Shown here: piece after piece, positions 12,446 through 56,729 of the stretch | How the letters are laid out: each line of letters begins with the position of its first letter | Numbering within the stretch: position 1 is the first letter of the stretch | Assembly: GCA_964552475.1 (NCBI GenBank) | Contig: CAZKFZ010000001.1 | Span: forward strand, 128,621 to 192,620 | DNA from: an uncultured Candidatus Saccharibacteria bacterium | Lineage (GTDB): Bacteria; Patescibacteriota; Saccharimonadia; CAILAD01; BJGX01 | DNA: 64,000 bases | Reading direction: 5' to 3' | The notes under the pieces: generated by a model | What the model saw: the letters and a program-made list of their open reading frames with translations, nothing else | Told to the model about the DNA's origin: nothing | Databases searched by the model: none | Translations under genes and position numbers: made by a program

Positions 12446-12532
12446 TGGTGCCGCGAGAGAGACTCGAACTCTCATGAGGTTGCCCCCACGGGTTTTTGAG
12501 ACCCGCGTGTCTACCAGTTCCACCATCGCGGC
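12446..12532 (-). tRNA. tRNA-Leu (anticodon CAA), type II with long variable arm, CCA encoded
   Basis: Minus-strand sequence GCCGCGATGGTGGAACTGGTAGACACGCGGGTCTCAAAAACCCGTGGGGGCAACCTCATGAGAGTTCGAGTCTCTCTCGCGGCACCA. It has a 7-bp acceptor stem, anticodon stem CGGGT/ACCCG, loop CUCAAAA (U33, CAA, A37), a long extra arm and a GTTCGAGTC T-loop. Confidence 0.85.
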
Positions 12533-24631: not shown

Positions 24632-27412
24632 TTATTGACAAGCTTCACAATCTTCACTGTCTACAGAACATATGTTTGTAGATTTTTTTACCGATGGAGT
24701 AGGGGCATTTTGTGCGACAGTACTAAACTCACGTTTATGTGTGTTTCCATACTTTGCGGTATCAACAGTGGACTTTTCTACTTGAGAAATTGCTAAAGAT
24801 CTTAAGTAGTAGGTAGTTTTTAATCCTATTTTCCAGGCGTAAGTATAAATATCTGAGAGGTTCTTTCCTGACACTCCTTGCACAAAAATATTCAAACTTT
24901 GACTCTGGTCTATCCACTTGCCTCTGTGTGCAGCAATTTTTATTAACCATTCTGGACCTATTTCGAACACCTCTTGATACTTTTCTCTTATTTCTGCTGG
25001 TATCTCAGTGATTTTCTGGATTGATCCGTCATAGAATTTCACCTTATTCATTATCTCGTCGTTCCAGAGATTATTTTTCTTTAAATCTTCAATTAAATAA
25101 GAGTTTACTACGGTAAAATCACCACTCATATTTGATTTTACATAAAGGTTTTTGTAGATTGGCTCAATACAAGGGTAGCATCCAGAGATATTTGAGATTG
25201 ATGCGGTGGGAGCAATAGCCATAGTATTGCTGTTGCGCATACCATATTTTTTTACGTGAGCGCGTACTTCTTTCCAGTCTAACTTACCTTGGCGCTTTAC
25301 ATCTATTTTTATTCCTCGTTCTTTTTCTAACATATCAATGGTATCTACAGGAAAAATACCCCTATCCCACTTAGAGCCCTTGTAAGATTTATAAGCACCA
25401 CGTTCTTTAGCAAGCTTACTAGAGCCTAGTATGGCATAATAACTAATCAGTTCCATACTTTCGTCGCCAAACTTAACTGCCTTATCTGAACTAAAAGGAC
25501 AGTTCATTAGATAGAGTGCGTCTTGAAAACCCATAATACCCAGGCCCACTGGACGATGACGCATGTTAGATACCTTACATTCGCTAGTGGTGTAGTAATT
25601 AATATCAATAACATTATCAAGCATCCTCATAGCAACTTCTACAGTTTCTGCAATAAGTTCTCGGTTGAGTTTACCACTCTGCATATGACGAGCTAAGTTA
25701 ACCGAACCTAGATTGCACACAGCCGTTTCGTCGGCAGAGTTATTTAAGGTTATCTCGGTACAAAGATTGGAATTGTGTATTACGCCGGTGTGATCTTGGG
25801 GTGAGCGAACGTTACATGCATCCTTAAAATTGATCCAGGGGTGACCAGTTTCAAACAGCATAGTAAGCATTTTGCGCCAAAGCTGAATTGCAGGAATTCT
25901 CTTAAAAAGTTCAATCTTACCTTCATCAGCTAGCTTCTCATATTCTAAATATTTTTCTTCAAAAGCTTTACCATATAAATGGTGTAGTTCCGGAACATCA
26001 TTAGGTGAAAATAGTGTCCATTCTTCATTCAACTCTACTCGTTTCATAAAAAGATCAGGTATCCAGTTTGCCGTGTTCATATCGTGGGTGCGACGACGCT
26101 CGTCACCAGTATTTTTACGAAGTTCCAGAAAATCTTCAATGTCTAAGTGCCAGGTTTCTAGATAAACACAGGTAGCACCTTTACGCTTTCCTGATCGTGA
26201 TATAGCAACCGTAGTGTCATTGGCAATTTTTAAAAACGGAATAACCCCTTGAGAAGGGATGTTTACGGTTTTTATAAGTGAGCCTGTAGAGCGGATATTG
26301 CTCCAATCTGTAGCAATACCACCAGAGAATTTACTCATTAGAGCGGTGTCTAAATAGACTTTAAAAATATGCTTAAGGTCGTCTTCGACAGTGTTTAAGA
26401 AGCACGAACTTAGCTGTGCAAATGTAGTACCTGAATGAAATAGGGTAGGAGTTGATGGTACATAGCGAAGAGTAGATAGGATATCATAAAATTTCTTAGC
26501 CCAAGTGTTTTGGTCGGTCTTTTTTTCTAGCACACATAGCCCCATAGCTATGCGCATCCAAAAAATTTGTGGAGCCTCTAATCTTACTCCGCGACCTTCG
26601 GACTGTACGAAGTAGCGATCATGTAGCATGTCTAGACCCATGTAGTCAAAAAGCTTGTCCTTTTCTGGATCAATATAGTCAGCTAATTCATCTAAATCAA
26701 AGCTGAGTAGTCTTTTGTCGAGACGACCATCTTTAACAGTATTGGTTATAAAATTCTTAAAAGTATCTTTGTATGCTTGCGGAACTTCGGTTTCAGCATC
26801 GGTGCCCAAAACCTCGCGATATATTTTTTTACGAAGTAGCTGGGCGGCAAGAGTGGAATAGGCGTGATCTTTCTCAATACTTGAAGTTGCAGCCATTATG
26901 AGGGCGTCTTGTAGTTCTTCAAGGGTAATTCCATCGTATAGATTACTCTTAGCATACTGAGCTAGTTCGTCTAGATCAACGGAGTCTTCTAGGCCTTCGG
27001 CGGCTTCTACTAAGTTTTTAATGAGACGAGAATAGCTAAAGTAATCTATACTGCCGTCTGTTAGGGTGACTTTTAACTCATTGTGCTCTAGTTTTTCAGC
27101 CGATCTAGATACTTCAGCCTGCCTCATAGCCTTATGTTGTTCGCGATATAAAATATAACTTCTAGCCGTCTTGTAGTAGTCGGCACGCATTAGTTCTTGT
27201 TCCACTAGGTCTTGAATGGTTTCTACTTCTGGTACGGCATCACCAATAATAGATTCCATATGCGATACTATATCGTCGACTAAACGAGGGATAGTAGTAG
27301 CCGGTATCTCACCGTCAACCGAGTCGCTGGCTTTCTGAATAGCTAATATTATACGACCAGGCTCAAAGTCTACAACTTGGCCGTTGCGCTTTTTGATATT
27401 AGTTATAGTCAT
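24632..27412 (-). CDS. nrdA: Ribonucleotide reductase class I large (alpha, R1) subunit with N-terminal ATP-cone
   Basis: ATP-cone (IKKRNGQVVDFEPGRI), active-site region CNLGSVNL and a C-terminal Cys pair (EDCEAC). AAGGAGG Shine-Dalgarno upstream of ATG 27412. Confidence 0.95.
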   Translation of the reverse strand: MTITNIKKRNGQVVDFEPGRIILAIQKASDSVDGEIPATTIPRLVDDIVSHMESIIGDAVPEVETIQDLVEQELMRADYYKTARSYILYREQHKAMRQAEVSRSAEKLEHNELKVTLTDGSIDYFSYSRLIKNLVEAAEGLEDSVDLDELAQYAKSNLYDGITLEELQDALIMAATSSIEKDHAYSTLAAQLLRKKIYREVLGTDAETEVPQAYKDTFKNFITNTVKDGRLDKRLLSFDLDELADYIDPEKDKLFDYMGLDMLHDRYFVQSEGRGVRLEAPQIFWMRIAMGLCVLEKKTDQNTWAKKFYDILSTLRYVPSTPTLFHSGTTFAQLSSCFLNTVEDDLKHIFKVYLDTALMSKFSGGIATDWSNIRSTGSLIKTVNIPSQGVIPFLKIANDTTVAISRSGKRKGATCVYLETWHLDIEDFLELRKNTGDERRRTHDMNTANWIPDLFMKRVELNEEWTLFSPNDVPELHHLYGKAFEEKYLEYEKLADEGKIELFKRIPAIQLWRKMLTMLFETGHPWINFKDACNVRSPQDHTGVIHNSNLCTEITLNNSADETAVCNLGSVNLARHMQSGKLNRELIAETVEVAMRMLDNVIDINYYTTSECKVSNMRHRPVGLGIMGFQDALYLMNCPFSSDKAVKFGDESMELISYYAILGSSKLAKERGAYKSYKGSKWDRGIFPVDTIDMLEKERGIKIDVKRQGKLDWKEVRAHVKKYGMRNSNTMAIAPTASISNISGCYPCIEPIYKNLYVKSNMSGDFTVVNSYLIEDLKKNNLWNDEIMNKVKFYDGSIQKITEIPAEIREKYQEVFEIGPEWLIKIAAHRGKWIDQSQSLNIFVQGVSGKNLSDIYTYAWKIGLKTTYYLRSLAISQVEKSTVDTAKYGNTHKREFSTVAQNAPTPSVKKSTNICSVDSEDCEACQ

Positions 27413-27465
27413 ATCCCTTCACCCTCCTTAAAATTTTGATTGATTTTTATTTAACTTATCCATAA

Positions 27466-27513
27466 GCCCATATATAGTGCTTATGTTACATCTAAATACA
27501 CTATATATAGGTA
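27466..27513 (-). promoter_or_regulatory. Two NrdR-box-like palindromes in the nrdA leader
   Basis: Box 1 at 27466-27481 (reverse complement AGCACTATATATGGGC) and box 2 at 27498-27513 (ACACTATATATAGGTA) are related to the NrdR consensus acaCwAtATaTwGtgt. Centres are 32 bp apart, which is the typical tandem NrdR operator geometry. Confidence 0.5.
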
Positions 27514-27582
27514 TTTGTTCTTAGTCAACTAGCTGTATTGCGCCAATAAAACAGACTATTTGATAAAATAGTTACTACGAAC

Positions 27583-27612
27583 ATAATACGAAAATGCCCC
27601 CTATTTTGTCAA
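27583..27612 (-). promoter_or_regulatory. Near-consensus sigma70 promoter on minus strand upstream of nrdA (TTGACA-18 bp-TATTAT)
   Basis: Minus-strand TTGACA (plus 27607-27612) and TATTAT (plus 27583-27588), ~170 nt upstream of the nrdA ATG. Confidence 0.45.
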
Positions 27613-27774
27613 GTGAATTGGCTTAAGCACTAGCGGCAAAGCATTAAGCACCCCACAAAAACAAAAGCTTACGATTAATAATAGCCCAAAACACAAATAT
27701 TTGTCTAGCATTGATATTTTGTGAATTTTAGTTTAAAAATACTATCTACAGATATGAGTTATAGTTTTATGCAA

Positions 27775-37520: not shown

Positions 37521-38084
37521 ATGAAACTAATTGTTGGACTAGGCAACCCTGGTCGAGAGTATTTATCAACCAGACATAATCTTGGATATATGGTAATAGA
37601 CGAGCTGTGTAGTAGATGGGATATCGCTTTGGGTCCAAATACCAAGCTGAAATCACAAATTTTTACTGGACTCGTTGACGGTCAAACCATAGTTGTTATA
37701 AAACCCGATACCTTCATGAACTTAAGCGGTCAGGCTGTTTACAAGGTTAAACAATTTTATAAATTACACAATAGTGATATATGGGTTGTAAGTGACGATC
37801 TAGACATTGATTTTGGTAAGATTCGTACTAGAGTTGGTGGTAGTAGTGGTGGCCACAACGGGTTAAAAGATATTATCGAGCAAATAGGAAAAGATTTTGT
37901 GAGAATAAGAGTAGGTATTAGAAACCCAAGCTTAGAAAAAGTCTCTTCAGACAAGTTTGTACTTAGTAGATTCAACAAAGTAGAGGTTGAGAAACTTCCA
38001 GAAATAATTCATATGACTAGTGATTGTGTTATAAATTTACTAAAAGATGGAGTGGTGGAGCACAATTCGGTAAAGGTAATTTAA
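37521..38084 (+). CDS. pth: Peptidyl-tRNA hydrolase
   Basis: MKLIVGLGNPGREYLSTRHNLG is the Pth signature. Confidence 0.9.
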   Translation: MKLIVGLGNPGREYLSTRHNLGYMVIDELCSRWDIALGPNTKLKSQIFTGLVDGQTIVVIKPDTFMNLSGQAVYKVKQFYKLHNSDIWVVSDDLDIDFGKIRTRVGGSSGGHNGLKDIIEQIGKDFVRIRVGIRNPSLEKVSSDKFVLSRFNKVEVEKLPEIIHMTSDCVINLLKDGVVEHNSVKVI

Positions 38085-38151
38085 ATACATATTTGTATAG
38101 ACTACATCATATCTTTATGATATAGTTTGTAGCACCATACCAGCCAAAGAC

Positions 38152-38427
38152 ATGGGGATATCAGTAGGTATGAGTAAACACACAACGCCTGAGCTACACC
38201 AAAGACGTCTTACTAAACTTAGTAAGATTATCCAAAGACTAGAGAAGGGTAGTATTTCAAAAAGTGACAAGCAAGATCTACAGATAATTGCTGGTCACTA
38301 TGGTGTAGATCAACCAACTTGTAGTGTAGAAAACATGTATCTGACATGGGCTAAAACCATTTCTGGAGAGATAAGCTCTCATATTCGATCTCTACAGTAT
38401 CATCCCGCAGCAATGTCAACCAACTAA
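38152..38427 (+). CDS. Hypothetical small protein (91 aa)
   Basis: ATG 38152; ends 7 nt before a strong intrinsic terminator. Confidence 0.35.
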   Translation: MGISVGMSKHTTPELHQRRLTKLSKIIQRLEKGSISKSDKQDLQIIAGHYGVDQPTCSVENMYLTWAKTISGEISSHIRSLQYHPAAMSTN

Positions 38428-38431
38428 ATAC

Positions 38432-38878
38432 ATGCCTTGTAACTTTCTAAGTTACGAGGCTTTTTATTTACAAAACATCTTCCTAATAGTATTATCACTT
38501 ATAAGTTTTGTACCTAATACATGTCATGGGGGAGTAGTGCTACATAGAACCATTCAAAAGTGTAGTGGACTTTTACGTTCACAAATAACTCGCCGAGAAA
38601 ATGAGAAGGCGACACGCAAGCTACAGCTTCAAGTTGATGCCAAGAAACTACTAGAAATAAAGGGTGATGCACGAAAGAATGGCTGGTCTCTTTCTCAGGA
38701 GTTAGTGCTATCACAGCTAAGTCTAAGGTACTGCGTGCCTACACCCGAACCGTTGCCAAATATCGTAGGTGATAAATATGGGCAGATAGACGAAAACGAT
38801 CGTTGGGCAAATCTTATACTCCATGAGATTACACAGATACTTAAGAAGTATCGTACCGACCGACCAGTAGGTAGATAG
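38432..38878 (+). CDS. Doubtful ORF (148 aa); the 5' part overlaps the terminator hairpin. A real coding portion, if any, probably starts downstream (e.g. GTG 38537)
   Basis: The ATG at 38432 lies inside the terminator stem. A candidate promoter (TTTACA-17 bp-TATTAT, 38467-38495) follows the terminator. The C-terminal ~100 aa look protein-like, with no internal ATG. Confidence 0.25.
   Translation: MPCNFLSYEAFYLQNIFLIVLSLISFVPNTCHGGVVLHRTIQKCSGLLRSQITRRENEKATRKLQLQVDAKKLLEIKGDARKNGWSLSQELVLSQLSLRYCVPTPEPLPNIVGDKYGQIDENDRWANLILHEITQILKKYRTDRPVGR
38434..38468 (+). terminator. Rho-independent terminator (11-bp stem with one G.U, loop TTCTA, T5 tract)
   Basis: GCCTTGTAACT-ttcta-AGTTACGAGGC followed by TTTTTATTT, directly after the 91-aa ORF stop. 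Confidence 0.7.
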
Positions 38879-38964
38879 TATTATGATAGAAAATTCTACT
38901 TAAGACTGAGTTAAAAATTAGAGATAGAGATAATGAGTTGTAAAAAACTAACTACCAAATTAGT

Positions 38965-38995
38965 GATTAGATTACTCTCACGGCTAAATTGTGAG
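38965..38995 (+). terminator. Rho-independent terminator (CTCTCAC-ggctaaatt-GTGAGAG + TTTTTAT)
   Basis: 7-bp stem plus T-tract on the plus strand downstream of the 38.4-38.9 kb unit. Confidence 0.55.
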
Positions 38996-39033
38996 AGTTT
39001 TTATTTATTAGTAAAATCCCCGTCTACTGTTTT
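38996..39033 (-). terminator. Terminator for the minus-strand MiaE-like gene (10-bp perfect stem CCCCGTCTAC/GTAGACGGGG)
   Basis: Hairpin at 39008-39033; on the minus strand it is followed by ATTTTACTAAT. Confidence 0.5.
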
Positions 39034-39053
39034 GTAGACGGGGTAGAGGTAAC

Positions 39054-39605
39054 TCAAGCTGCTATCTCTGGAATAAGGCCAATCGCCTCACGTCCGCGCT
39101 GATGTGCAGCCAAAGTTTTCTGCATAGCTTCATTTCCAGCCATCCTACGAAATGCACGCTCGTGGAACACTTCTTGGGGTAGGATTTTGGTAAACACGGC
39201 ACGGATATCTGAAGGAGCATATTCGTCAGCTGCAATTTCACGAATCCGTTCGAGTCTCATAAATTCAGCGTGGGCGGCAACTGCCGCACCAGTCTCGAAG
39301 TTTGTAATACCGGCTAGTGTAGTATTCCAATATCGCTCTGGCTTCTTAAGCTCGCTGGGTGTTATACCACGCGCAATCAGTAGATCACCAACCCAACTCG
39401 CATGATCAAGCTCTTGATCCGCGATATAGCCTAGAACCGCACGCTCTCGTGAACCTACCAAGGTATATTCTTCTGCAAACTCCATTATTCTGGCGTGAGC
39501 GGTAATTTCTCCGTGATACTGGTTGAGTAGCCAATCTAGCAGTAGTTCTGGGTTATGCTTGATTTTTTGCCACCAAGCCACTGAGTCTGTAAGTGTAGGG
39601 TACAT
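39054..39605 (-). CDS. Ferritin-fold di-iron protein, MiaE (tRNA hydroxylase)-like; higher GC than surroundings
   Basis: Four ExxH/E helices (EITAH, ELDH, AHAE, EVFHE). The segment IADQELDHASWVGDLLIARGITPSEL resembles MiaE ...EELVHFEQVLEIMQARGIRPRRI. Start re-set to ATG 39605 (GAGGAGG Shine-Dalgarno); the track's extra 31 N-terminal codons are AT-rich promoter DNA. Local GC is visibly higher (~50% by eye) than neighbouring genes. Confidence 0.5.
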   Translation of the reverse strand: MYPTLTDSVAWWQKIKHNPELLLDWLLNQYHGEITAHARIMEFAEEYTLVGSRERAVLGYIADQELDHASWVGDLLIARGITPSELKKPERYWNTTLAGITNFETGAAVAAHAEFMRLERIREIAADEYAPSDIRAVFTKILPQEVFHERAFRRMAGNEAMQKTLAAHQRGREAIGLIPEIAA

Positions 39606-39753
39606 ACTGTCCTCCTCGTAGTGTTTCGACAGTAAATATACTTTAATGTATACAATTATTATGTACAATGTGTGTTCGTAATGCGTGACTGACAACATAA
39701 CTTTACTGATTAGTGAGTTGCTTTTATTGTCGATATATAGTTATAATGTAAGT

Positions 39754-40524
39754 ATGGATAGCGAATTACTTTCATTTTTTGTTTCAATTGGATTAACTAA
39801 AACTGAGGCAAACATTTATTATTGCGGTCTATCTGACGCTCAGATAGGTGTAAAAGAGTTGGTTGATAGAACCAATATAAAGCGTACTACAATATACCAT
39901 TGTCTCGGCACCTTACGTCAAAAAGGGCTTGTGTCCGAATCACGTGATAATGGGAAGCTAGTGTATGTTATGGCCAGAAGTGAAAGTATAGATAGATTTT
40001 TACAACGCCAAATATCTAAGCTTGAGCAACAAAAACTAAAATTAGCTAGTATAGAAAGGTCTCTACCTAAAGTAAAAGTTAAGCAGAGTGATGATTGGGC
40101 TATTGAGCACTATACAGGTAGGGAGGGCGTGGAATTAGCCATAGACACAGCATTATATTGTAAGGATCGTTGCTGGAAAATAATTGCACCTACTAACAAC
40201 TACTTTTCGCACAGCGATAAAAACTCGCAGAAGTATTTTCTTAAAACTAGAGAGAACAGGCATATTATTGCAAAAAGCCTTTGGGAAGAGACTTTTCACC
40301 CAAAAAAATCTAGTGTGGAAAACAGAGCTCCACGTATTTTACCATCGTCATTTAATGGAAAATTTAAGTCAACAATAATTCTATTCGACAACTCAATACT
40401 TATGCTGTCGTCTGGCAAAACGCACTCTGCAGTTATCTTAAAATCGACTGAACTTTTCTCTACACTATCAGTAATGTTTGATGGTTTATATTTAATCTCA
40501 AAGCCATATGAGTTGATAAAATAG
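39754..40524 (+). CDS. TrmB-like/MarR-like winged-HTH transcriptional regulator with C-terminal domain
   Basis: N-terminal HTH (LTKTEANIYYCGLSDAQIGVKELVDRTNIKRTTIYHCLGTLRQKGLV) is typical of TrmB-family regulators. ATG 39754 lies 6 nt after TATAAT (39742-39747), suggesting a leaderless transcript. Divergent from the MiaE-like gene. Confidence 0.5.
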   Translation: MDSELLSFFVSIGLTKTEANIYYCGLSDAQIGVKELVDRTNIKRTTIYHCLGTLRQKGLVSESRDNGKLVYVMARSESIDRFLQRQISKLEQQKLKLASIERSLPKVKVKQSDDWAIEHYTGREGVELAIDTALYCKDRCWKIIAPTNNYFSHSDKNSQKYFLKTRENRHIIAKSLWEETFHPKKSSVENRAPRILPSSFNGKFKSTIILFDNSILMLSSGKTHSAVILKSTELFSTLSVMFDGLYLISKPYELIK

Positions 40525-40589
40525 CTAGGCAACTATTTTATAGAAAGTTTATTCCGCTCCACGCTAGCAATGGGTAAAAAAATTCGCTA

Positions 40590-40633
40590 ATATGAAAAGC
40601 AGACCTGCCGTACGAATCGAACAGATCTGCTTA
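40590..40633 (-). terminator. Intrinsic terminator of the candidate sRNA
   Basis: 11-bp stem with a G.U wobble on the minus strand, a 14-nt loop, and a 3' U-tract (plus 40590-40597). Confidence 0.5.
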
Positions 40634-40823
40634 TCACACCCTTTCATACCCCCAAAGAATTGGGATTTGTCAGTCTCATAATATATAAATAGACCGTGGT
40701 GATGAAAGGGAGTAATCTGCTAGCGAGAATCTAAAAGGAGGGTGAGTTTTAGACCTTGCCTCGACTAGCAGATTACTCCCTTCAATAAGTAAAAGAGCAA
40801 TAAAATATAAAGTTTTTGATTCG
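40595..40823 (-). ncRNA. Candidate novel small RNA (~230 nt) bounded by a near-consensus promoter and an intrinsic terminator
   Basis: Minus-strand promoter TTGACA-17 bp-TACAAT (plus 40830-40858). A 20-bp long hairpin (GGGAGTAATCTGCTAGtCGAG / CTCGcTAGCAGATTACTCCC) encloses a 7-bp apical stem with CUCACCCUCC loop. The terminal 11-bp hairpin AAGCAGAUCUG...CAGGUCUGCUU pairs with a G.U only in the minus-strand transcript (C.A on plus) and is followed by UUUUCAUAUU. No convincing ORF inside. Confidence 0.5.
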
Positions 40824-40829
40824 ACAAGT

Positions 40830-40858
40830 ATTGTATCACGCTAGTGCTTATTTGTCAA
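40830..40858 (-). promoter_or_regulatory. Near-consensus sigma70 promoter on the minus strand (TTGACA-17 bp-TACAAT) driving the candidate sRNA
   Basis: Plus-strand tgtcaa at 40853-40858 and attgta at 40830-40835. Confidence 0.5.
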
Positions 40859-40913
40859 TACCTTTTACAGGGTATTTTTTATATAGCTTATGCTTCTCTG
40901 ATAGAGCAGAAAT

Positions 40914-41765
40914 ATGAATATACAAGAATTTAATTATAATAGCAAGGGTTATCCAGATCTTTTGCGAAATATTTCATCTCCACCCAAGAAATTATTCTAT
41001 CTGGGTAGTATACCCAACCTACCAATGGTGGCCATAGTAGGCACACGCAAGCCGACCGAGTATGGCAAGCAAATAACCTATAAAATTGCCTACGATCTTG
41101 CCAGCGCTGGTATATGCGTCGTTAGTGGCTTAGCCTATGGCATAGATGGAATTGCGCATAGCGCAGCTTTAGATGCTGGCGGTAAAGTGGTAGCGGTACT
41201 AGGTACCCCACTTAACACAATATATCCGGTAGCAAATCGCAACTTAGCTAAGTCTATATTGTCCAAAGGTGGAGCAATTATTAGTGAGTATAGAGTTGGT
41301 ACCAGCACTCAACGATTTAATTTTCCGGCGCGAAATAGAATAATTGCCGGCCTAAGCTTGGCCACAATCGTAACCGAAGCCGATGCGCAAAGTGGTAGTC
41401 TAATTACTGCCAATTTTGCCATTACTAATGATCGAATGGTGATGGCTGTGCCAGGCAACATTACCAGCCCACGTAGCGCCGGCCCCAACAACTTAATAAA
41501 ACTAGGCGCTAGACCGGTAACCGACGCTAGTGATGTACTGGCCGAGCTAGAACTTAAAAGTACAGTTTTGAAAAGTCACAAAATTGCACCGGCTAATAAA
41601 GAAGAGGCTTTGGTCATACAGCTTATAGAAAATGGTCACGTCAACACTCACGCCATGATAGAGAATAGTGAGTTTGACGCCGCCAGGCTAGCACATGTAT
41701 TAAGCTTAATGGAGATAACCGGCAAGATTCGAAACCTTGGTGCAGGCCAATGGGTAGTAAGCTAA
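40914..41765 (+). CDS. dprA: DNA processing protein A (Smf)
   Basis: Rossmann-like DprA core: VAIVGTRKPTEYGKQITYKIAYDLASAGICVVSGLAYGIDGIAHSAALDAGG. Confidence 0.85.
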   Translation: MNIQEFNYNSKGYPDLLRNISSPPKKLFYLGSIPNLPMVAIVGTRKPTEYGKQITYKIAYDLASAGICVVSGLAYGIDGIAHSAALDAGGKVVAVLGTPLNTIYPVANRNLAKSILSKGGAIISEYRVGTSTQRFNFPARNRIIAGLSLATIVTEADAQSGSLITANFAITNDRMVMAVPGNITSPRSAGPNNLIKLGARPVTDASDVLAELELKSTVLKSHKIAPANKEEALVIQLIENGHVNTHAMIENSEFDAARLAHVLSLMEITGKIRNLGAGQWVVS

Positions 41766-41775
41766 CTATTTTTAT

Positions 41776-41805
41776 TTGACAATGCAATTATTCATCTGCT
41801 AATAT
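41776..41805 (+). promoter_or_regulatory. Candidate promoter upstream of topA (TTGACA-18 bp-TAATAT)
   Basis: TTGACA at 41776-41781 and TAATAT at 41800-41805. Confidence 0.35.
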
Positions 41806-41867
41806 CGGCAACTTATGCAGTTAACTTGCAAATATATTTTTAAAGCGTTAGCATAATACAAACTCTT

Positions 41868-44183
41868 ATGGCAAAAAAATTACTCATAGTAGAATCACCG
41901 GCCAAGGCTAAAACAATCGAGAAGTATCTGGGCTCAGACTACCAGGTACTTTCTAGCTATGGACACATACGAGATCTGCCCAAGAGCGGTATGAGCATTG
42001 ATATTAAAAACAACTTCGAGCCCACCTACGAAATTCCCGCTGATTCTAAAAAGACAATTTCTGCGCTCAAAAAGGCTGTAAAAAACAAAGAGGTATTTCT
42101 TGCCACCGATGAAGACCGCGAAGGGGAGGCAATTAGTTGGCATTTGTGCGAAGCACTTAAGCTTGATTATAAAACCACTAAACGTATAGTGTTTCACGAG
42201 ATCACCAAAGAGGCTTTAGTTAGCGCTGTAAGTAACCCCCGTACGGTTGATATTAACCTTGTAAATGCCCAGCAGGCTCGCCGGGTGCTTGATAGATTAG
42301 TGGGTTATGAGCTAAGCGAAGTTATATGGAAAAAAATACGGTATGGTCTGAGTGGTGGTCGTGTTCAGTCAGTTGCAGTTCGCCTAATATGCGAACGAGA
42401 GAGCGAGATTGAAGCCTTTAATGCAAATTCTACTTTTAAAGTAAGTGCGGAGTTTAATCTAGGAAAAGATGGTGTGTTACTGGCTGAACTAAAAGATAAG
42501 ATACCTTCCAAAGATGAAGCAAAGCAATTACTTGAATTATTAAAGAGCACAAAATATACAATAACGTCAGTAGAGAAAAAACCCGGTAAAAAATCTCCAT
42601 CGCCACCATTCACTACCTCAACATTACAACAGGCGGCTAGCTCTCAATTAGGCTTTTCAGTACGTCAAACCATGGTGGTTGCTCAAAAGCTTTATGAAGC
42701 CGGTAAAATTACCTATATGCGTACTGACTCACTCAACCTTTCTGATAGTGCTATCAAACAAGCTAGTAGTGTAATAAGATCAAATTTTGGTAATAAGTAC
42801 TTAAAAAATAGACATTTCAAGGCTAAATCGGCTAACGCCCAAGAAGCACATGAGGCTATTCGTCCAACTGATTTTTCTGAAGAGTTAGGTAGTGATGATT
42901 CTGGCCAACAACGCTTATATAAGCTTATTAGAGCACGGGCTTTAGCCTCACAAATGACTGATGCCGAAATCGAAAGATCGGTTGTAACCATTAATTTAAA
43001 CAACTCTGAGTACGTTTTTATTGCTAGGGGTGAGATTGTTGTTTTTGATGGTTTTTTAAAAGTTTATGGCAAGATGATAGAAGATGTTATTCTCCCACCA
43101 CTAAAAGATGGGCAGTCTCTAGATATAAAAAAGGTAACGGCTCGCGAGACCTTCGATAGGCCACCATCTAGGTATACCGAGGCAAGTTTGGTAAAAAAAT
43201 TAGAGACTGAAGGAATAGGTCGCCCAAGTACTTATGCTCCTACTATTTCAACCATACAATCTCGTGGATATGTAGAAAAAGCCAGCCGTGAAGGTGAACC
43301 GCGTAACGTAAATGTAATTACATTAGAAAACAAATCTGTAAACGAAGTTGTTGAACAAGAAAACTTTGGTGTAGAAAAAAACAAATTGTTTCCAACCGAT
43401 ACTGGGAGAGTGGTAAATGATTTTATAGTGAAGTATTTTCCGACTATAGCTGATTATAAGTTCACCGCTAAGGTAGAGGGAGAGTTTGATAAAATTGCCC
43501 AAGGCCATGAAAAATGGAAAACTATGATAGCTAATTTTTATAAACCATTTCATGAACTAATACTTAAAACCGAGGATGTTACACGCCAAGATGCCAACAA
43601 AGGAAGAGAACTAGGTAAAGATCCTAAATCTGGTAAACCGGTAATCGCTAGATTGGGTAAGTATGGGGCGATGATACAAATAGGACAAGCAGAAGACGAA
43701 GATAAGGGCGAGGGCAAACCAAAATTTGCTTCTATGCCAGCCGGTAAAACAATAGAGAGCGTCACTCTTGATGAAGCTTTAGAGATGTTTAAATTGCCAA
43801 GAGATCTAGGTAAGACAAAAGACGGCAAGGATGTTGTTGCGAGTATTGGTAGATTTGGGCCATATGTAAGGTTTGATAATACCTTTGTATCTATTAAAGA
43901 CGAAGATCCATTTACTATTACGCATAAAAAAGCCCTAGAATACATCGCTGCCAAGCAAAAAGCCGATGCCGAAAAAATAATTACTGATTTTAAAGACGAA
44001 GGTATACAGATATTGAATGGTCGCTATGGTCCTTATGTAACAGATGGAGAAACCAACGCTAAAATACCAAAAGACGTTGATCCTAAAACACTATCGGCAA
44101 AGTCAGCTCAAGAAATTATCGCAAATAAACCAAGTGGAAAACGTTCTAAGAAAACAACGTTAAAGAAAAAATCTAATAAATAG
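41868..44183 (+). CDS. topA: DNA topoisomerase I
   Basis: TOPRIM N-terminus (LLIVESPAKAKTIEKYLG...GHIRDL), the catalytic Tyr region, C-terminal Zn-ribbon-less repeats and a Lys-rich tail; 771 aa. The dprA-topA linkage is conserved in many bacteria. Confidence 0.95.
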   Translation: MAKKLLIVESPAKAKTIEKYLGSDYQVLSSYGHIRDLPKSGMSIDIKNNFEPTYEIPADSKKTISALKKAVKNKEVFLATDEDREGEAISWHLCEALKLDYKTTKRIVFHEITKEALVSAVSNPRTVDINLVNAQQARRVLDRLVGYELSEVIWKKIRYGLSGGRVQSVAVRLICERESEIEAFNANSTFKVSAEFNLGKDGVLLAELKDKIPSKDEAKQLLELLKSTKYTITSVEKKPGKKSPSPPFTTSTLQQAASSQLGFSVRQTMVVAQKLYEAGKITYMRTDSLNLSDSAIKQASSVIRSNFGNKYLKNRHFKAKSANAQEAHEAIRPTDFSEELGSDDSGQQRLYKLIRARALASQMTDAEIERSVVTINLNNSEYVFIARGEIVVFDGFLKVYGKMIEDVILPPLKDGQSLDIKKVTARETFDRPPSRYTEASLVKKLETEGIGRPSTYAPTISTIQSRGYVEKASREGEPRNVNVITLENKSVNEVVEQENFGVEKNKLFPTDTGRVVNDFIVKYFPTIADYKFTAKVEGEFDKIAQGHEKWKTMIANFYKPFHELILKTEDVTRQDANKGRELGKDPKSGKPVIARLGKYGAMIQIGQAEDEDKGEGKPKFASMPAGKTIESVTLDEALEMFKLPRDLGKTKDGKDVVASIGRFGPYVRFDNTFVSIKDEDPFTITHKKALEYIAAKQKADAEKIITDFKDEGIQILNGRYGPYVTDGETNAKIPKDVDPKTLSAKSAQEIIANKPSGKRSKKTTLKKKSNK

Positions 44184-45456: not shown

Positions 45457-48177
45457 ATGAACGACATTATTTCATTAATTTCAACATTTTTTTCAGTAAT
45501 AGGCACCATTCTTTTTCAGTTTTGGGGTTGGACGCTTATTGCCGCTTACTTGGGATTTTTAATCTGGAAAAATAATAGTAAGAAAATAGAATATCTACAA
45601 AATTCTGACTTCAGTCTATTACATATTGTAATACCTAAAGACAATGAAAAAAAAGAATTGTCTGCAGAGCAAATGTTTGCTAGCTTACATGGCATATTAC
45701 AGCCTACAAGTGAATTAGAAAAGGAGAGGCGAATACAAGACCATATAAGCTTCGAGATAGTTGCTCGCGACCAGGTGATACATTTTTATGTCTGGACCCC
45801 TACTAATTTGAAGGATTTTGTAAGTAGTCAAATTTATGCTCAATACCCATCTGTACAAATAAGTGAGATGAAACACGATTATACCAGCCAAGAGGGGCTC
45901 GACCCCAATCATGTATATTCTACAGAAATAACGCTTATGAAGGATGAAATATTTCCAATTCGTACCTTTCAAACTTTTGAAGTAGACCCTTTGGCCGGAC
46001 TCACCACTGTCCTGGCATCACTATCAGATAACGAACAGATGTGGATACAATTCTTAATGGAGCCGGTCGATGACAGTTGGCACAAAAAAAGTCTTAACTA
46101 TATAAATGAAGTTATTAATGGCAAAAAGCCTAGTCGTTTTGAAAACTTAGGAAGCAAAACCGTTGGCTATGCTAAAGCGTTATCTGTTCCACCAAGTGTA
46201 CAGGCTGCAGATGCCAAAAAACCCGATAAAAAAGAACTCACACCCGGCCAAACTACCCTAAACTCCGCTATTGAAACTAAGGCAGAAAAACTTGGTTATG
46301 CAGTAAAAATACGAGCCGTATATGTAGGGGAGAGTGATGCTGCAGCAAAAACCCGTATGCAAGCCTTGGTAGGAGGATTTAAACAGTTTAATACTATTAA
46401 TTTAAATGGTTTTACTAATACCGGACTGTTAGCGGGCGACACAGCCCTAGAACAATACCAATTGAGAGAGTTTGAGGATGCTGGCTATGTTCTAAATATT
46501 GAAGAGATCGCCAGCCTATACCACTTACCACACACCAGTGTAGAGACACCAGGTGTAGCCTACACCAGCACAAAAGTAGGGGAGCCACCTAGTAACCTGC
46601 CAACTATTAACAACACTCCTGCAGAGGATATAAGCTTGTTTGGAGTTACTACTTTTAGGCAAGCCAATATGAAGTTTGGTATAAAACGTGAAGATCGTAA
46701 ACGACACATGTATATTATTGGTAAGTCTGGCAGTGGTAAATCATTTTTACTCAATTTGCTTACACTATCAGATATTTATCACAACGAAGGCTTTGCGGTA
46801 GTTGATCCGCACGGTGACTACGCTCAAGATATGTTGCGGTATATACCAGAACATCGGCTCGAAGACGTAGTATACTTTAATCCTGCTGACGGAGAGTTTC
46901 CAGTGGCGTTCAACCCTATGGAGGTTTATGATGTGAATCGCCGTAGCAACGTCGCTTCTGAAATTGTGGGGGTACTCAAAAAAATGTTCGGTGATAGTTG
47001 GGGACCACGGCTTGAACATATTTTACGCTACACACTACTGGCACTTCTTGAGACACCTAATACCACACTGCTAGGTATCACCCGTATGCTCACCGACAAA
47101 AAATATCGTAATGAAATCATCGGCAACGTAACCGACCCTGTAGTGAAGGCGTTCTGGGTGAATGAGTTTGCCAGCTGGAATGATAAGTTTGCATCAGAAG
47201 CTGTAGCTCCGGTTCTAAATAAAGTTGGGGCGTTTACAGCCAACCCACTTATACGAAATGTAATTGGACAAGAAAAGAGTACCTTTAGTATTCGTAAAAT
47301 GATGGATGAAGGTAAAATTTTAATAGTAGACCTAAGTCGCGGTAAGATTGGTGAAGACAATGCTAGTATACTTGGTAGTCTGCTAATTACAAAAATTCAG
47401 CTTGATGCTATGAGTCGTGCAGATATTCCAAATATTGACGATCGTAGGCCATTTTACTTATACGTAGATGAGTTTCAAAACTTCGCTACCGAGAGTTTTG
47501 CAGTAATTCTTTCTGAGGCACGTAAATATGGTCTTTATCTTACCGTTGCAAACCAATACATAGCTCAGATGCCCGACGAGGTCAAAGATGCCGTTTTTGG
47601 TAATGTTGGTAGTATGATTACTTTTAGGGTGGGTGCAGACGACGCCACTAGCCTGAGTCGTTATTTTGAACCAGTGTTTGAACCTTTAGATTTGGTTAAT
47701 CTAGACAAGCAAGATATATATGTCAGTATGAGTATCGATGGACAAACCAGTCTACCTTTCTCGGCTAAAACTCTTTTTGTGCCCAAAACACCAGCCGATC
47801 ACTCTAGTAAAATTCTAGAACTTAGTAGGAATAAATACTCTAGTGGACGAGCTAGCGTAGAAGAATCAATTGCCGCCTGGAGTGGTATGGAAGAGGGAAA
47901 ATCAGCGAGTGATAATAACGAAAATACAAAAACCGAACAAAAGATTTCTGGAACTGCTGCTAGCCTACCATCTCTAAAAGTGAGTGGTGCAGAGCCCAAA
48001 AAGTATAGCGAGATGGTAAAAGGTAAAAGCCAAGCAATTAGTAACCGTAGAAACGAACCTTACAAGCCTGATCAAAGCAAAGGCAACCCGACGAACAATA
48101 ACAAAAAAACTGGCAATAACTCAAACAACCACCAAGGTGGTCACAATAAACCTTTCTACCCCAAAAAGAAAAACTAG
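45457..48177 (+). CDS. Membrane-anchored VirD4/TraD/TraG-like type IV coupling protein ATPase with extra ~390-aa N-terminal domain and low-complexity C-terminal tail
   Basis: Two N-terminal TM helices. Walker A IIGKSGSGKSF, then VVDPHGDYAQDML...FNPADGEFPVAFNP (compare F TraD: IVDPNGDML...ILNPYD). Walker B FYLYVDEFQNF, then ARKYGLYLTVANQ and TFRVGADDA, typical of TraG/TraD C-terminal region. N/K/G-rich tail. Confidence 0.7.
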   Translation: MNDIISLISTFFSVIGTILFQFWGWTLIAAYLGFLIWKNNSKKIEYLQNSDFSLLHIVIPKDNEKKELSAEQMFASLHGILQPTSELEKERRIQDHISFEIVARDQVIHFYVWTPTNLKDFVSSQIYAQYPSVQISEMKHDYTSQEGLDPNHVYSTEITLMKDEIFPIRTFQTFEVDPLAGLTTVLASLSDNEQMWIQFLMEPVDDSWHKKSLNYINEVINGKKPSRFENLGSKTVGYAKALSVPPSVQAADAKKPDKKELTPGQTTLNSAIETKAEKLGYAVKIRAVYVGESDAAAKTRMQALVGGFKQFNTINLNGFTNTGLLAGDTALEQYQLREFEDAGYVLNIEEIASLYHLPHTSVETPGVAYTSTKVGEPPSNLPTINNTPAEDISLFGVTTFRQANMKFGIKREDRKRHMYIIGKSGSGKSFLLNLLTLSDIYHNEGFAVVDPHGDYAQDMLRYIPEHRLEDVVYFNPADGEFPVAFNPMEVYDVNRRSNVASEIVGVLKKMFGDSWGPRLEHILRYTLLALLETPNTTLLGITRMLTDKKYRNEIIGNVTDPVVKAFWVNEFASWNDKFASEAVAPVLNKVGAFTANPLIRNVIGQEKSTFSIRKMMDEGKILIVDLSRGKIGEDNASILGSLLITKIQLDAMSRADIPNIDDRRPFYLYVDEFQNFATESFAVILSEARKYGLYLTVANQYIAQMPDEVKDAVFGNVGSMITFRVGADDATSLSRYFEPVFEPLDLVNLDKQDIYVSMSIDGQTSLPFSAKTLFVPKTPADHSSKILELSRNKYSSGRASVEESIAAWSGMEEGKSASDNNENTKTEQKISGTAASLPSLKVSGAEPKKYSEMVKGKSQAISNRRNEPYKPDQSKGNPTNNNKKTGNNSNNHQGGHNKPFYPKKKN

Positions 48178-55306: not shown

Positions 55307-55334
55307 ATTTATCTCCTGTTTTTTTATTTTTATA

Positions 55335-55358
55335 GTTTTTTGTTTTTGTTTTTGTTTT
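55335..55358. repeat. (TTTTTG)n microsatellite-like tract in the ftsL-rsmH spacer
   Basis: ttttttgtttttgtttttgtttta; similar tracts at 56428-56448 and 56616-56668. Confidence 0.6.
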
Positions 55359-55387
55359 ATCGTTATATCTGTGTATTGGTAAGATTT

Positions 55388-55485: not shown

Positions 55486-56385
55486 TTAATTTATTTTCTC
55501 GACGACGCGTAGTTTGGCGCTACGGGCACGTGGATTGGTATTATCTAATTTTGAACCAACGACTGGTTTTTTGGTAACTATTTTGTATTTCGCCTCAGAC
55601 ACAATCTGACCATAGTCGTCACGTATTGGTGTGGCCAACTCCTTGAAGGCCTGTTTGACAAGTCGATCTTCTAGAGAATGAAAGCTTATCACGGCCATCC
55701 TTCCACCTTTACTTAGATTATTTGGAGCTTGTTTTAGCATCTGCTCTAATGCACCCAGTTCATCATTCACTGTAATTCTTAGTGCTTGGAAGCTACGTGT
55801 CGCTGGATGGATTCTGCCTATAGTTCTAACGTTTTTTGAAATAATCTCCGCTAAATCTGTAGTTTTGGTGATAGGTTTAATCTTTCTCTCCCTTACAATA
55901 GCTTTGGCAATTTTACGACTAGCCCTTTCTTCTCCATATTTATATAATATTTCGGCTAAATCGTGTTCTGAGTAGCTATTAACAATCTTTTCTGCAGTGA
56001 GATCTTGTGTTGTGTCCATTCTCATATCTAAAGGGCCAGGTTGTGAAAAGCTAAAACCTCTCTTGGGTTGATCAATCTGTGGCGAACTCACACCTACATC
56101 GGCAAGTATTATATCTGCAAGTGGTATGTTTTTATGCCATTTTATCGCGCTAAAGTCTACATGCTCTATACTGACGTTTTTTACGTTTTTAAACTTTGAA
56201 CGTAAGAACCTGATTGCTTCTGGGTCTTTATCAAAAAGATATCCATAGCCACTCTTACCTACGGCAGATAACAACTTAGTGGCGTGACCGCCATAACCTG
56301 CTGTTATATCTACAAATACTTCTCCCATCTTTGGTCGCAATAAAACTTCGACTTGTTCTAGTAATACTGGTGTGTGTCTGTTCAT
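55486..56385 (-). CDS. rsmH: 16S rRNA (cytosine1402-N4)-methyltransferase RsmH (MraW)
   Basis: MNRHTPVLLEQVEVL, the SAM-binding fold and the conserved C-terminal NPRARSAKLRV. Confidence 0.9.
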   Translation of the reverse strand: MNRHTPVLLEQVEVLLRPKMGEVFVDITAGYGGHATKLLSAVGKSGYGYLFDKDPEAIRFLRSKFKNVKNVSIEHVDFSAIKWHKNIPLADIILADVGVSSPQIDQPKRGFSFSQPGPLDMRMDTTQDLTAEKIVNSYSEHDLAEILYKYGEERASRKIAKAIVRERKIKPITKTTDLAEIISKNVRTIGRIHPATRSFQALRITVNDELGALEQMLKQAPNNLSKGGRMAVISFHSLEDRLVKQAFKELATPIRDDYGQIVSEAKYKIVTKKPVVGSKLDNTNPRARSAKLRVVEKIN

Positions 56386-56427
56386 GTCAAGGTTACCTAT
56401 TCAGCAGTCAGTTGTGTGTTTTTATAT

Positions 56428-56448
56428 TTGTTTTTTGTTTTTTGTTTT
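56428..56448. repeat. (TTTTTTG)n tract in the 344-bp mraZ-rsmH spacer
   Basis: ttttttgttttttgtttta. Confidence 0.5.
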
Positions 56449-56729
56449 AAATTTATCTGCAGTTGCAGACAATAGTGTGACAAGGACTTAATAAAATAAG
56501 TCCTTATAAGTAGAGATAGTTTGTGAGGTGGAGTTTTATGTTGCATGTACGTACTAGAGTATTATTTTACGCGTCACCCTCCAATAAACGCGTACTGACT
56601 GCCAAATAGTTAACTTTGATTTTTGTATTTTTTTGAACTTTTTGTTTTTATTTTGTTATTAATGAGCGATTGTCTTTTATATAGATTTTCATCTAGTAAG
56701 ACCATCATATAGACTGCCGATAAGCGGAA

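Follow-up and report, generated by a model that had tools for sequence, protein, structure and literature searches.

Within the 64-kb stretch of Saccharibacteria DNA analyzed here (the window), a 389-bp spacer separates a gene for a TrmB-HTH protein from dprA (Table 1). No open reading frame of at least 60 amino acids lies inside it, in agreement with the initial annotation, which had described the spacer as ORF-free and had placed in it a free-standing small RNA gene on the minus strand, running from its own promoter to its own terminator. The start codon of dprA lies 55 nt from the −35 box of the RNA promoter in the window genome and only 8 to 22 nt from it in several clades. The TrmB-like neighbor is incidental, because the gene is missing from the relatives' loci, which carry the ancestral order der-pth-[RNA]-dprA-topA. 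The gene beyond the RNA terminator is convergent (pth in the relatives, the TrmB-like gene in the window), and no gene follows the RNA in the same orientation in the window or in the relatives' loci. A riboswitch or cis-regulatory leader was therefore rejected, there being no gene on the RNA strand for it to control.

Table 1. Features of the spacer between the TrmB-like gene and dprA, of the RNA gene on its minus strand, and of the two candidate target sites (window coordinates)
Feature	Position	Strand	Description
TrmB-HTH gene	39685-40524	+	Pfam PF01978, E = 4.8e-8
Spacer with RNA gene	40525-40913		389 bp, between the TrmB-HTH gene and dprA
dprA	40914-41765	+	Conserved divergent neighbor; PF02481, E = 3.6e-74
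RNA gene, promoter to terminator	40858-40595	-	
Promoter	40830-40858	-	-35 TTGACA 40858-40853; 17-nt spacer; TG 40838-40837; -10 TACAAT 40835-40830
5' leader	40778-40823	-	AU-rich, variable; start placed near 40823 (+/- 2) by the position of the -10 box
P1 long hairpin	40711-40777	-	AGUAAUCUGCUAG/CUAGCAGAUUACU, bulged U, CGAG/CUCG, internal loop, apical UCUAAAA/UUUUAGA
P1 apical loop	40737-40746	-	10 nt, CUCACCCUCC
Three-way-junction domain (P2-P4)	40639-40710	-	
P2	40710-40698 with 40650-40639	-	CCCUUUCAU-c-ACC with GGU-AUGAAAGGG
P3	40696-40691 with 40676-40671	-	CGGUCU with AGACUG
Junction strand		-	ACAAAU, A-rich, in the three-way junction
P4	40664-40660 with 40655-40651	-	CCCAA with UUGGG
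P5 terminator hairpin and U tract	40595-40632	-	AAGCAGAUCUG (40632-40622) with CAGGUCUGCUU (40607-40597), 11 bp including one U.G; 3' end probably near 40595-40590
Conserved motif beyond the terminator	40548-40570	-	TTGCTAGCGTGGAGCGGAATAAA; may not be part of the RNA
Predicted target, nrdA ribosome-binding site	27410-27430	-	AUG 27412-27410
Possible second site, mraZ-rsmH leader hairpin	56568-56594	-	UACGCGU-[UUAUUGGAGGGUG]-ACGCGUA, with GGAGGGUG in the loop (56582-56575)

The promoter is near consensus, as initially described, with 11 of 12 matches and a TG extension. It is the best of 11 promoter-like sites in positions 39000 to 42500, a count not above chance (9.5 expected). A regular expression retrieved TTGACA, separated by exactly 17 nt from a −10 box with a TGn extension, in 39 of 42 family members; the other 3 were mis-hits of the expression, and reading their sequences shows the same promoter. 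Both hexamers, like the spacing between them, are invariant. The 5′ leader that follows differs among relatives in sequence and length, and the RNA body is nearly invariant. In the minimum-free-energy fold the leader is unpaired (the first 27 nt of the folded 241-nt stretch).

At the far end lies the 11-bp hairpin (P5) already reported as terminator-like. Its loop is 14 nt long, and it is followed by UUUUCAUAUU, counted from the last two U's of the stem. One of its pairs, a U.G in the minus-strand transcript, would become an A.C mismatch in a plus-strand transcript, as had been argued in favor of the orientation. In the aligned members a U run lies 3′ of the hairpin, and P5 with its U tract is, by its sequence, a predicted intrinsic (Rho-independent) terminator. 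It was missed by a terminator scan, in which the loop was limited to 8 nt. About 25 nt farther on, a conserved motif (consensus in window-clade relatives, TTGCKAGCRTGKAGCRKWATAAA) accompanies the RNA even though the genes farther out differ between genomes; it was rejected as a sigma-70 promoter, since the spacing is wrong on both strands.

Between these signals the RNA comprises a long hairpin, P1, and a three-way-junction domain, P2 to P4. P1 is the long stem with an apical stem-loop that was noted at the outset; its lower stem of 13 plus 4 bp is continued by a 7-bp apical stem that closes the 10-nt loop. Positions 40585 to 40825 fold at −87.4 kcal/mol (z = −8.7) as the minus strand and at −68.4 kcal/mol (z = −4.9) as the plus strand, and the covariance model described below scores the minus strand at 218 bits versus 35 bits for the plus strand. 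The RNA is about 230 nt long in the window genome and up to about 450 nt in other Saccharibacteria. In the larger versions another C-rich loop is invariant as well, GCCCACCC or GACCACCCAC; its possible pairing with GGGUGGG or GGGUG inside the RNA suggests a pseudoknotted fold. Another pseudoknot, between loop CACCCU and AGGGUG just 3′ of P2, was not adopted; it is not conserved in the L009 and L091 clades.

RNA homologues lie divergently upstream of dprA in all dprA-anchored Saccharibacteria relatives examined, whose DprA proteins are 39 to 100% identical. Between genomes with DprA 77 to 90% identical, the RNA body is about 100% identical and its flanks have diverged. Metagenomes were also searched with a pattern from the RNA only, and 29 of the 31 matches are true members; the remaining matches, L097 and L100, were discarded as chance, and an ambiguous Berkelbacteria locus (L043, 29.9 bits) was left out of the counts. 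dprA adjoins the RNA in 21 of the 29 pattern-found loci, and 6 contigs end first. The flanks are present in the other two loci, L120 and L122, and neither dprA nor pth is adjacent there; the RNA persists without them and is therefore not merely an appendage of dprA. Members occur across the class Saccharimonadia, including the cultivable Nanosynbacter. Each related locus has one copy, and neither word and repeat searches nor the covariance model turned up a second one in the 64-kb window.

MAFFT by itself misaligned P3, P4, and P5, so the sequences were realigned with a covariance model whose structure had been specified by hand. In this model-based alignment of 36 sequences, which is biased toward the structure modeled, 37 of 57 base pairs show compensatory changes, distributed over all seven helices; paired cells amount to 91.6% versus 77.2% in shuffles, and the covariation score is 0.431 versus 0.06 to 0.08 with slid partners. 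P1 (helices 1 to 3) has changes on both sides at 16 of 24 pairs, with 95.6%, 74.3%, and 93.3% paired cells, respectively. Helices 4, 5, and 6 (P2 to P4) have 5, 4, and 4 compensated pairs, and P5 (helix 7) has 8 of 11, with 93.4% paired cells. RNAalifold applied to the MAFFT alignment found compensatory changes at 16 of 29 pairs and supported P2 independently.

Conservation and covariation in relatives are the decisive evidence that the locus is more than a chance arrangement. Its minus-strand orientation follows from the strand-specific G.U pairs present in several helices, from the strand scores of the covariance model, and from the promoter, which is conserved on the minus strand in all members. 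Judged from these sequence comparisons, the minus strand almost certainly carries a genuine gene for a structured RNA, and it represents a new RNA family, absent from Rfam 15. A promoter and terminator conserved on one strand only, with no same-strand gene downstream, are what would be expected of an independent transcription unit encoding a trans-acting sRNA with a C-rich loop, and the proposal of a free-standing minus-strand RNA is supported by them. A small peptide product was rejected, since an 11-codon open reading frame starting AUGAGACUG is not preserved in relatives.

The core of the P1 loop, CACCCUCC, is invariant in 35 aligned sequences and is closed by a covarying stem; it thus has the form of a conserved unpaired seed. 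An ACCCUCC core is retained in the larger, more distant versions of the RNA, and Nanosynbacter-type members have the loop UUACCCUCCAC. The initial annotation had read the loop as anti-Shine-Dalgarno-like, a reading strengthened by complementarity, conserved among relatives, to the ribosome-binding site of nrdA. There, AAGGAGGGUGA (27429 to 27419) is complementary to the loop segment UCACCCUCCUU; the complementarity spans 10 to 11 nt, and the loop pairs with GGAGGGUGA at the Shine-Dalgarno position. nrdA ranks first of 60 window genes at −20.5 kcal/mol (next, −15.7; mean, −7.8; standard deviation, 3.9). This energy was reached on any gene by 5 of 300 loop shuffles (p ~0.017, a modest value); the target was found post hoc, within the 64-kb window rather than a whole genome. 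dprA was rejected as a target of the loop, as its ribosome-binding region contains no GGAGG.

The same GGAGGGUGA occupies the Shine-Dalgarno position in four of four nrdA leaders, whose flanks differ and whose NrdA proteins are 63 to 72% identical. The RNA loop is invariant across the clades with readable nrdA leaders, so the site is conserved without loop-site covariation. One of these leaders (L123) shares a contig with an RNA locus (L090), and another (L124) probably comes from the same organism as RNA locus L091, to judge by the nearly equal lengths of their contigs. Among 32 distinct GGAGG-type sites before long open reading frames, the four nrdA leaders alone have GUG directly after GGAGG. 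Outside the RNA gene, 382 kb contain 12 copies of GGAGGGTG; of these, five lie in nrdA leaders, one in the transcript of the RNA itself (in L012), and one in the loop of a conserved hairpin. GGAGGGUGA could also be simply a strong Shine-Dalgarno sequence, if the 16S rRNA tail of this lineage has an extra C. We regard nrdA as a tentative direct target of the loop, with a chance slightly short of even. The possible second site, the hairpin in the mraZ-rsmH leader, is conserved in L126 (RsmH 61% identical), and an Rfam search of the mraZ-rsmH region found no match.

The Saccharibacteria, once called TM7 and part of the Candidate Phyla Radiation, are ultrasmall, naturally competent epibionts with reduced genomes that depend on scavenged nucleotides. 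In such a cell, the RNA would be transcribed from its near-consensus extended −10 promoter and would end at its own hairpin and U tract. The long, rigid P1 presents the invariant C-rich loop, with the P2 to P4 junction and the terminator hairpin as the remaining body. The loop may serve as a seed for pairing with mRNAs at G-rich GGAGGGUG(A) sites. The leading candidate is the Shine-Dalgarno sequence of nrdA, which opens the nrdAB operon for class I ribonucleotide reductase; pairing there would keep ribosomes from binding, and less of the enzyme would be translated. A further contact, between loops, may form with the hairpin of the conserved leader of mraZ-rsmH, a cell-division operon. That the RNA acts through base-pairing of its loop seems to us somewhat more probable than its opposite, and the whole explanation, an independent sRNA gene together with its base-pairing mechanism, we consider evenly balanced between right and wrong.

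The structured body probably stabilizes the RNA or serves to bind a protein. The three-way junction is conserved class-wide, beyond the needs of a simple seed sRNA, and thereby hints at a protein partner or another activity. More speculatively, the back-to-back promoters of the RNA and dprA might couple deoxynucleotide supply to DNA uptake and recombination. In the broadest form of the proposal, which we think unlikely, the RNA would be a class-wide Saccharibacteria riboregulator that ties nrdAB and the mraZ-rsmH operon to dprA, a hub RNA of the cell cycle whose junction or pseudoknot may sense a signal or bind a lineage-specific protein.

Several other accounts of the locus were weighed. The RNA might have a structural or protein-binding role, as a component of a Saccharibacteria-specific protein or as a partner that sequesters it, with the loop and junction as protein-recognition elements and not a seed. 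The three-way junction, the invariant P2 sequence CCCUU/AAGGG, and the A-rich junction strand are all kept class-wide, the second C-rich loop of the larger versions suggests a pseudoknotted fold, and the near-consensus promoter suggests high abundance. However, dprA is the only adjacent partner gene that is conserved, and it is not next to the RNA in L120 and L122; the account also offers no explanation for the complementary sites kept at nrdA and in the mraZ-rsmH leader. On balance this account is unlikely.

Loop pairing of a more general kind is considerably less probable. The loop could mimic the anti-Shine-Dalgarno tail of 16S rRNA and either compete globally with ribosomes for Shine-Dalgarno sequences or serve as a decoy that draws off some factor or toxin specific for the 16S 3′ end. 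The RNA loop CACCCUCCUUU does resemble the canonical 16S tail, taken as CACCUCCUUU, and the most distant members still have the CCUCC core (L056, for instance, has UACCUCCAC). An extra C is nevertheless conserved in nearly all members, with a matching extra G only in nrdA-type sites, and most window genes pair poorly with the loop, as their mean energy indicates.

It is very unlikely that the locus is a cis-acting device of dprA, in which divergent transcription or a 5′-overlapping antisense RNA would control the dprA promoter and the act of transcription would outweigh the RNA product. The divergent position beside dprA, seen at every dprA-anchored locus and at 21 of 23 informative pattern-found loci, fits such a device, as does the short distance from the dprA start to the −35 box in several clades, but interference needs neither a covarying structure of 200 to 450 nt nor an invariant loop, and the RNA persists with its promoter and terminator in L120 and L122, where dprA is not adjacent.

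A highly divergent housekeeping RNA (6S, SRP, RNase P, or tmRNA) missed by the Rfam models is more improbable still. Its size and conservation are within the range of such RNAs, and UGAAAGGGUGUGAUAAG loosely resembles one of the conserved segments in the specificity domain of RNase P. Against this, the sole match of Rfam 15 in the 64-kb window at gathering thresholds is a tRNA (12449 to 12532). At E ≤ 10 the spacer gave only chance matches, all below 21 bits against thresholds of 54 to 150, and five homologous loci, including a Nanosynbacter locus, gave none. Nothing at E ≤ 10 corresponded to RsaE/RoxS (RF01820), nor, in the window and the Nanosynbacter-type version, to 6S RNA (RF00013), to SRP RNA, to tmRNA, or to RF00010, RF00011, or related RNase P models, and an ARAGORN tmRNA search of positions 39500 to 42000 was empty. 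The RNA also has no 5′-3′ closing stem and no GNRA-capped helix, its apical loop being a 10-mer and not the GNRA tetraloop of SRP RNA, and reading its sequence disclosed no P4-type motif of RNase P (pseudoknot motif of the GGAAAGUCC type). The initial annotation, which had seen no features of these four RNAs by eye, is supported on this point, and three of the refutations that it named (an Rfam match, lack of conservation and covariation in relatives, and a multicopy REP-like palindrome, the last within the window) did not come about.

A DNA-level palindrome without RNA function (a REP-like repeat, cruciform, or protein-binding site) is scarcely credible, for although P1 is a near-perfect inverted repeat, so that the opposite strand also reaches about 35 bits, the element is single copy in the window, has strand-specific G.U pairs, covaries in the nonpalindromic P2 to P5, and has its promoter and U tract conserved on one strand only.

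An RNA family with strong covariation and a fixed genomic address could enter Rfam and serve in genome annotation. A full-text literature search for Saccharibacteria, Patescibacteria, and Nanosynbacter found no regulatory or structured RNA. The base-pairing mechanism would add a testable regulatory link to ribonucleotide reductase, which sets deoxynucleotide supply, in organisms whose lifestyle centers on nucleotide economy. If loop pairing is true, nrdA leaders of the Nanosynbacter type should be GUGGAGGGUAA-like and not AAGGAGGGUGA. The mraZ-rsmH leader, with its matching loop, is a possible second structured element. Should the nrdA prediction be wrong, a well-supported orphan structured RNA would still stand.

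Compared with known RNAs, the Saccharibacteria RNA is similar in size to 6S RNA, and it is conserved and probably abundant, but it has no closing stem, central bubble, or terminal-stem rod, and its 5′ leader is unpaired and variable. It shares with the cia-dependent csRNAs of streptococci an unpaired sequence resembling an anti-Shine-Dalgarno and a link to competence, here a genomic one through dprA. The csRNAs differ in being 87 to 151 nt long, with two stem-loops flanking an unpaired anti-Shine-Dalgarno and anti-AUG stretch and with CiaR direct repeats; the repeat TTTAAG-N5-TTTAAG was not found upstream of 40858. The 3′ domain of Staphylococcus aureus RNAIII (H7, H13, and H14) likewise places C-rich apical loops on stable hairpins that bind Shine-Dalgarno sequences, partly by kissing, and its kissing with target hairpins is matched by the GGAGGGUG hairpin loop in the mraZ-rsmH leader, where such contact is a prediction. 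RNAIII, by contrast, is 514 nt long, encodes delta-hemolysin, and is under quorum-sensing control, and homology to it was not found.

In presumed mechanism there is a parallel with the RsaE/RoxS family of Firmicutes, likewise free-standing sRNAs that run from a promoter of their own to an intrinsic terminator and have conserved unpaired C-rich loop motifs predicted to pair with the G-rich Shine-Dalgarno sequences of metabolic mRNAs; some clades of the Saccharibacteria RNA carry two C-rich loops as well. The resemblance stops at mechanism, with no similarity by sequence or covariance model, and the Saccharibacteria RNA, from another phylum (Patescibacteria), is 2 to 4 times longer, contains a three-way junction that covaries, and has nrdA as its predicted target. 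With orphan structured RNAs discovered through comparative genomics, such as the raiA-motif and Bacteroidales-1-type RNAs, it has in common that it is free-standing, covarying, and confined to a lineage, without an experimentally known function. It differs from them in its absence from Rfam 15 and, unlike most orphans, in having a conserved candidate target site.

The spacer upstream of dprA contains, on the minus strand, a candidate small RNA gene. Read on that strand, the promoter, the long hairpin with its exposed loop and the 11-bp 3′ hairpin described in the initial annotation are all present, as is the single G.U pair of the 3′ hairpin, here U.G. The promoter (11/12 with a TG extension) was the top-scoring site in a scan of 39000-42500, where promoter-like sites were not more numerous than chance (11, with 9.5 expected). 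Folding of 40585-40825 gave −87.4 kcal/mol (z = −8.7) on the minus strand versus −68.4 kcal/mol (z = −4.9) on the plus strand, in keeping with the orientation originally proposed. The earlier view that this is not tmRNA, RNase P, SRP or 6S RNA held: ARAGORN found nothing at the locus, and Rfam gave no match at gathering thresholds or at E ≤ 10. Repeat and word searches and a covariance model found one copy in the 64-kb window, not a multicopy REP-like element. We infer expression, transcript ends and regulation from sequence.

Coordinates of the small RNA locus and of other features in the window
Feature	Position	Strand	Details
Extra genes between pth and the RNA	38100-40524		two small unannotated ORFs; rubrerythrin/MiaE-like gene; TrmB-HTH gene
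Rubrerythrin/MiaE-like gene	39054-39698	−	
TrmB-HTH gene	39685-40524	+	
Spacer	40525-40913		between TrmB-HTH gene and dprA
3′ hairpin	40632-40597	−	11 bp including one U.G pair, then U tract
Long hairpin (P1)	40777-40711	−	apical loop CUCACCCUCC at 40746-40737
RNA promoter	40858-40830	−	TTGACA 40858-40853, 17-nt spacer with terminal TG, TACAAT 40835-40830
dprA	40914-41765	+	
rsmH	55486-56385		
mraZ-rsmH intergenic region	56386-56729	−	344 nt
mraZ	56730-57080		

The RNA is conserved and covarying in relatives. For 35 distinct sequences aligned with MAFFT, RNAalifold supported P1, its apical stem and the P2 helix, with compensatory changes in 16 of 29 predicted pairs. MAFFT misaligned the shorter helices; therefore, the full structure was set on the window sequence, a covariance model was built, and 36 strong matches were realigned. 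In this alignment, 91.6% of cells held standard pairs, a fraction somewhat inflated by fitting to the model, versus 77.2% in shuffles (0/500 reached the observed value). Both sides had changed in 37 of 57 pairs versus a mean of 28.5 in shuffles (0/500 reached 37), compensatory pairs occurred in all seven helices, and the covariation score was 0.431 versus 0.06 to 0.08 with partners slid by 1 to 3 columns. Both the MAFFT-based result and this slide control speak for a real signal. The strand is fixed as minus by several pairs in which G.U predominates. From 5′ to 3′, the consensus comprises a variable leader, P1 capped by an invariant loop, CACCCUCC, a three-way junction closed by P2 (with P3 and P4 inside, connected via an A-rich strand), a short linker and the terminator hairpin P5. 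The promoter is remarkably constant: TTGACA, a spacer of exactly 17 nt and an extended −10 element (TGn) precede 39 of 42 members by regular expression and the other three by eye.

By its DprA homologues, the organism belongs to Saccharibacteria, within Patescibacteria. Contigs with DprA 77 to 90% identical share the ORF-free gap upstream of dprA; there, the RNA body is ~100% identical from the P1 base to the terminator, and the 5′ leader, promoter spacer and flanks vary. The RNA holds the same position in genomes with DprA 53 to 75% identical. Weaker covariance model matches were obtained in front of dprA in additional Saccharimonadia, Nanosynbacter sp. TM7-087 among them; dprA loci outside Saccharibacteria gave none, apart from an ambiguous 29.9-bit hit in a Berkelbacteria locus (L043) that was not counted. 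A metagenome scan with a pattern from invariant RNA blocks alone, dprA not used, returned 31 loci, 29 of them true members. dprA divergently adjoins the RNA in 21 of these 29; six reach the contig end before the dprA side can be judged, and two (L120 and L122) place the RNA beside other genes, still with its own promoter and terminator. Ancestrally, the genes run der-pth-[RNA, opposite strand]-dprA-topA; the TrmB-like and rubrerythrin-like genes of the window are lineage-specific insertions between pth (37521-38084) and the RNA, a region that varies among genomes.

A conserved motif, TTGCKAGCRTGKAGCRKWATAAA, lies 25 to 60 nt past the terminator (window 40548-40570, read on the minus strand; also L003, L005, L007, L087-L091, L093-L096, L101, L110 and L111) and is replaced by GAACAAAAAGCGAGCATGAGCA in the L009 clade. 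It borders the pth-RNA zone, where inserted genes differ per genome, and it cannot be read as a promoter on one strand or the other. In relatives, the region downstream of topA codes for a ~355-aa protein matching Sigma70_r4 and, faintly, HARE-HTH (L001 7400-8852, L005 7370-8852 and L003 7763-8852), followed in L001 and L005 by a ~900-aa TrwB/VirD4-like ATPase; taken with dprA, these genes resemble a neighborhood for DNA uptake or transfer. Cumulative GC skew reaches its maximum at window ~46000-48000 and falls thereafter, a pattern suggestive of a switch in replication strand bias inside the window.

In more distant Saccharimonadia, whose regions were read directly, the RNA is ~330 to 450 nt long with the same overall plan: a promoter, a long hairpin tipped by UUACCCUCCAC, a P2 helix CCCUUUAAC/GUUGAAGGG, insertions within the junction domain, and a terminator loop GCCCACCC complementary to an internal GGGUGGG. 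This partner lies immediately before the 3′ strand of P2 in L019, L021, L022, L034, L042 and L076; the corresponding pair is CGGGUG with CACCCG in L029, and L014 and L056 place the G-rich partner elsewhere in the junction domain. The complementarity may reflect pseudoknot formation, or else a second seed and its internal mimic.

The C-rich P1 loop is the sole long unpaired invariant sequence of the RNA. Besides the antisense of the RNA gene, its complement AAGGAGGGTG occurs in the window only at 27429-27420 (minus), the Shine-Dalgarno region of nrdA (leader UUUUAAGGAGGGUGAAGGGAUAUG), encoding a 926-aa class I ribonucleotide reductase alpha subunit. By loop duplex energy against −30 to +12 regions, nrdA ranked first of the 60 genes in the 64-kb window searched (−20.5 kcal/mol; next, −15.7; mean, −7.8; SD, 3.9), and 5 of 300 composition-preserving loop shuffles attained its energy on any gene. 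Three further nrdA leaders, from lineages with 63 to 72% NrdA identity, keep GGAGGGUGA at the Shine-Dalgarno position despite diverged surroundings; one (L123) shares a contig with an RNA locus (L090). Of 32 distinct GGAGG-type sites preceding long ORFs in the Saccharibacteria DNA compared, only those in the four nrdA leaders continue from GGAGG into GUG. The canonical 16S rRNA tail is CACCUCC. Relative to it, the loop carries an additional C and the nrdA site an additional G; the loop is therefore predicted to fit nrdA better than would a ribosome with the canonical tail, which may not be that of this lineage.

Upstream of nrdA (27413-27760, minus) are two NrdR-box-like palindromes, CCTATATATAGTGTA and GCACTATATATGGGC; ~200 nt further upstream are a consensus promoter, TTGACA-17-TATTAT, and then a conserved GTTCGTAG. 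Among L123, L124 and L125 (compared upstream of position 1501), L123 and L125 also have the promoter, from which a short transcript or a longer nrdA leader may arise. The L125 leader carries, at 1425-1450, an additional site farther upstream, GGAGGGUGC-GGUGGUC, complementary simultaneously to both C-rich loops of the L008-type RNA, GCACCCUCC and GACCACC.

The only other window copy of GGAGGGTG (56582-56575, minus) lies within a 13-nt hairpin loop of the mraZ-rsmH intergenic region, displaying GGAGGGUG, the complement of the small RNA loop. This region is a conserved and highly structured element (fold z = −5.3) with a ~21-bp long-range helix ending at the rsmH AUG, three internal hairpins and no Rfam match. 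It is 88% identical to L126 1174-1506, versus only 61% for RsmH, and the GGAGGGTG-bearing hairpin is unchanged there. From these two sequences, a second, loop-loop contact of the RNA is suggested as a lead. T-rich (A-rich on minus) low-complexity direct repeats (55317-55369, 56413-56457 and 56619-56663) flank dcw-cluster intergenic regions.

The locus has no same-strand gene after it, which rules out a leader or riboswitch role. The nrdA evidence and the second site in the mraZ-rsmH leader lead us to favor an RNA that would act in trans through a seed in its loop, occluding the nrdA ribosome-binding site. A protein-binding or scaffold RNA is a less probable reading, kept plausible by the elaborate conserved body. 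A generic anti-Shine-Dalgarno mimic is unlikely, since the additional C and G are specific, and a purely cis-acting role on dprA is slightly more doubtful still, with the covarying structure and L120 and L122 against it. A divergent housekeeping RNA is essentially excluded, and a DNA palindrome even more firmly so.

Rfam 15 does not contain the family, and no paper describing it was found in the searchable literature. It is notable as class-wide in the Candidate Phyla Radiation, with a fixed address beside dprA and a specific candidate target. The family is new, the type of regulator familiar: although the RNA belongs to neither family, its proposed mechanism resembles that of RsaE/RoxS and that of the C-rich loops of RNAIII.
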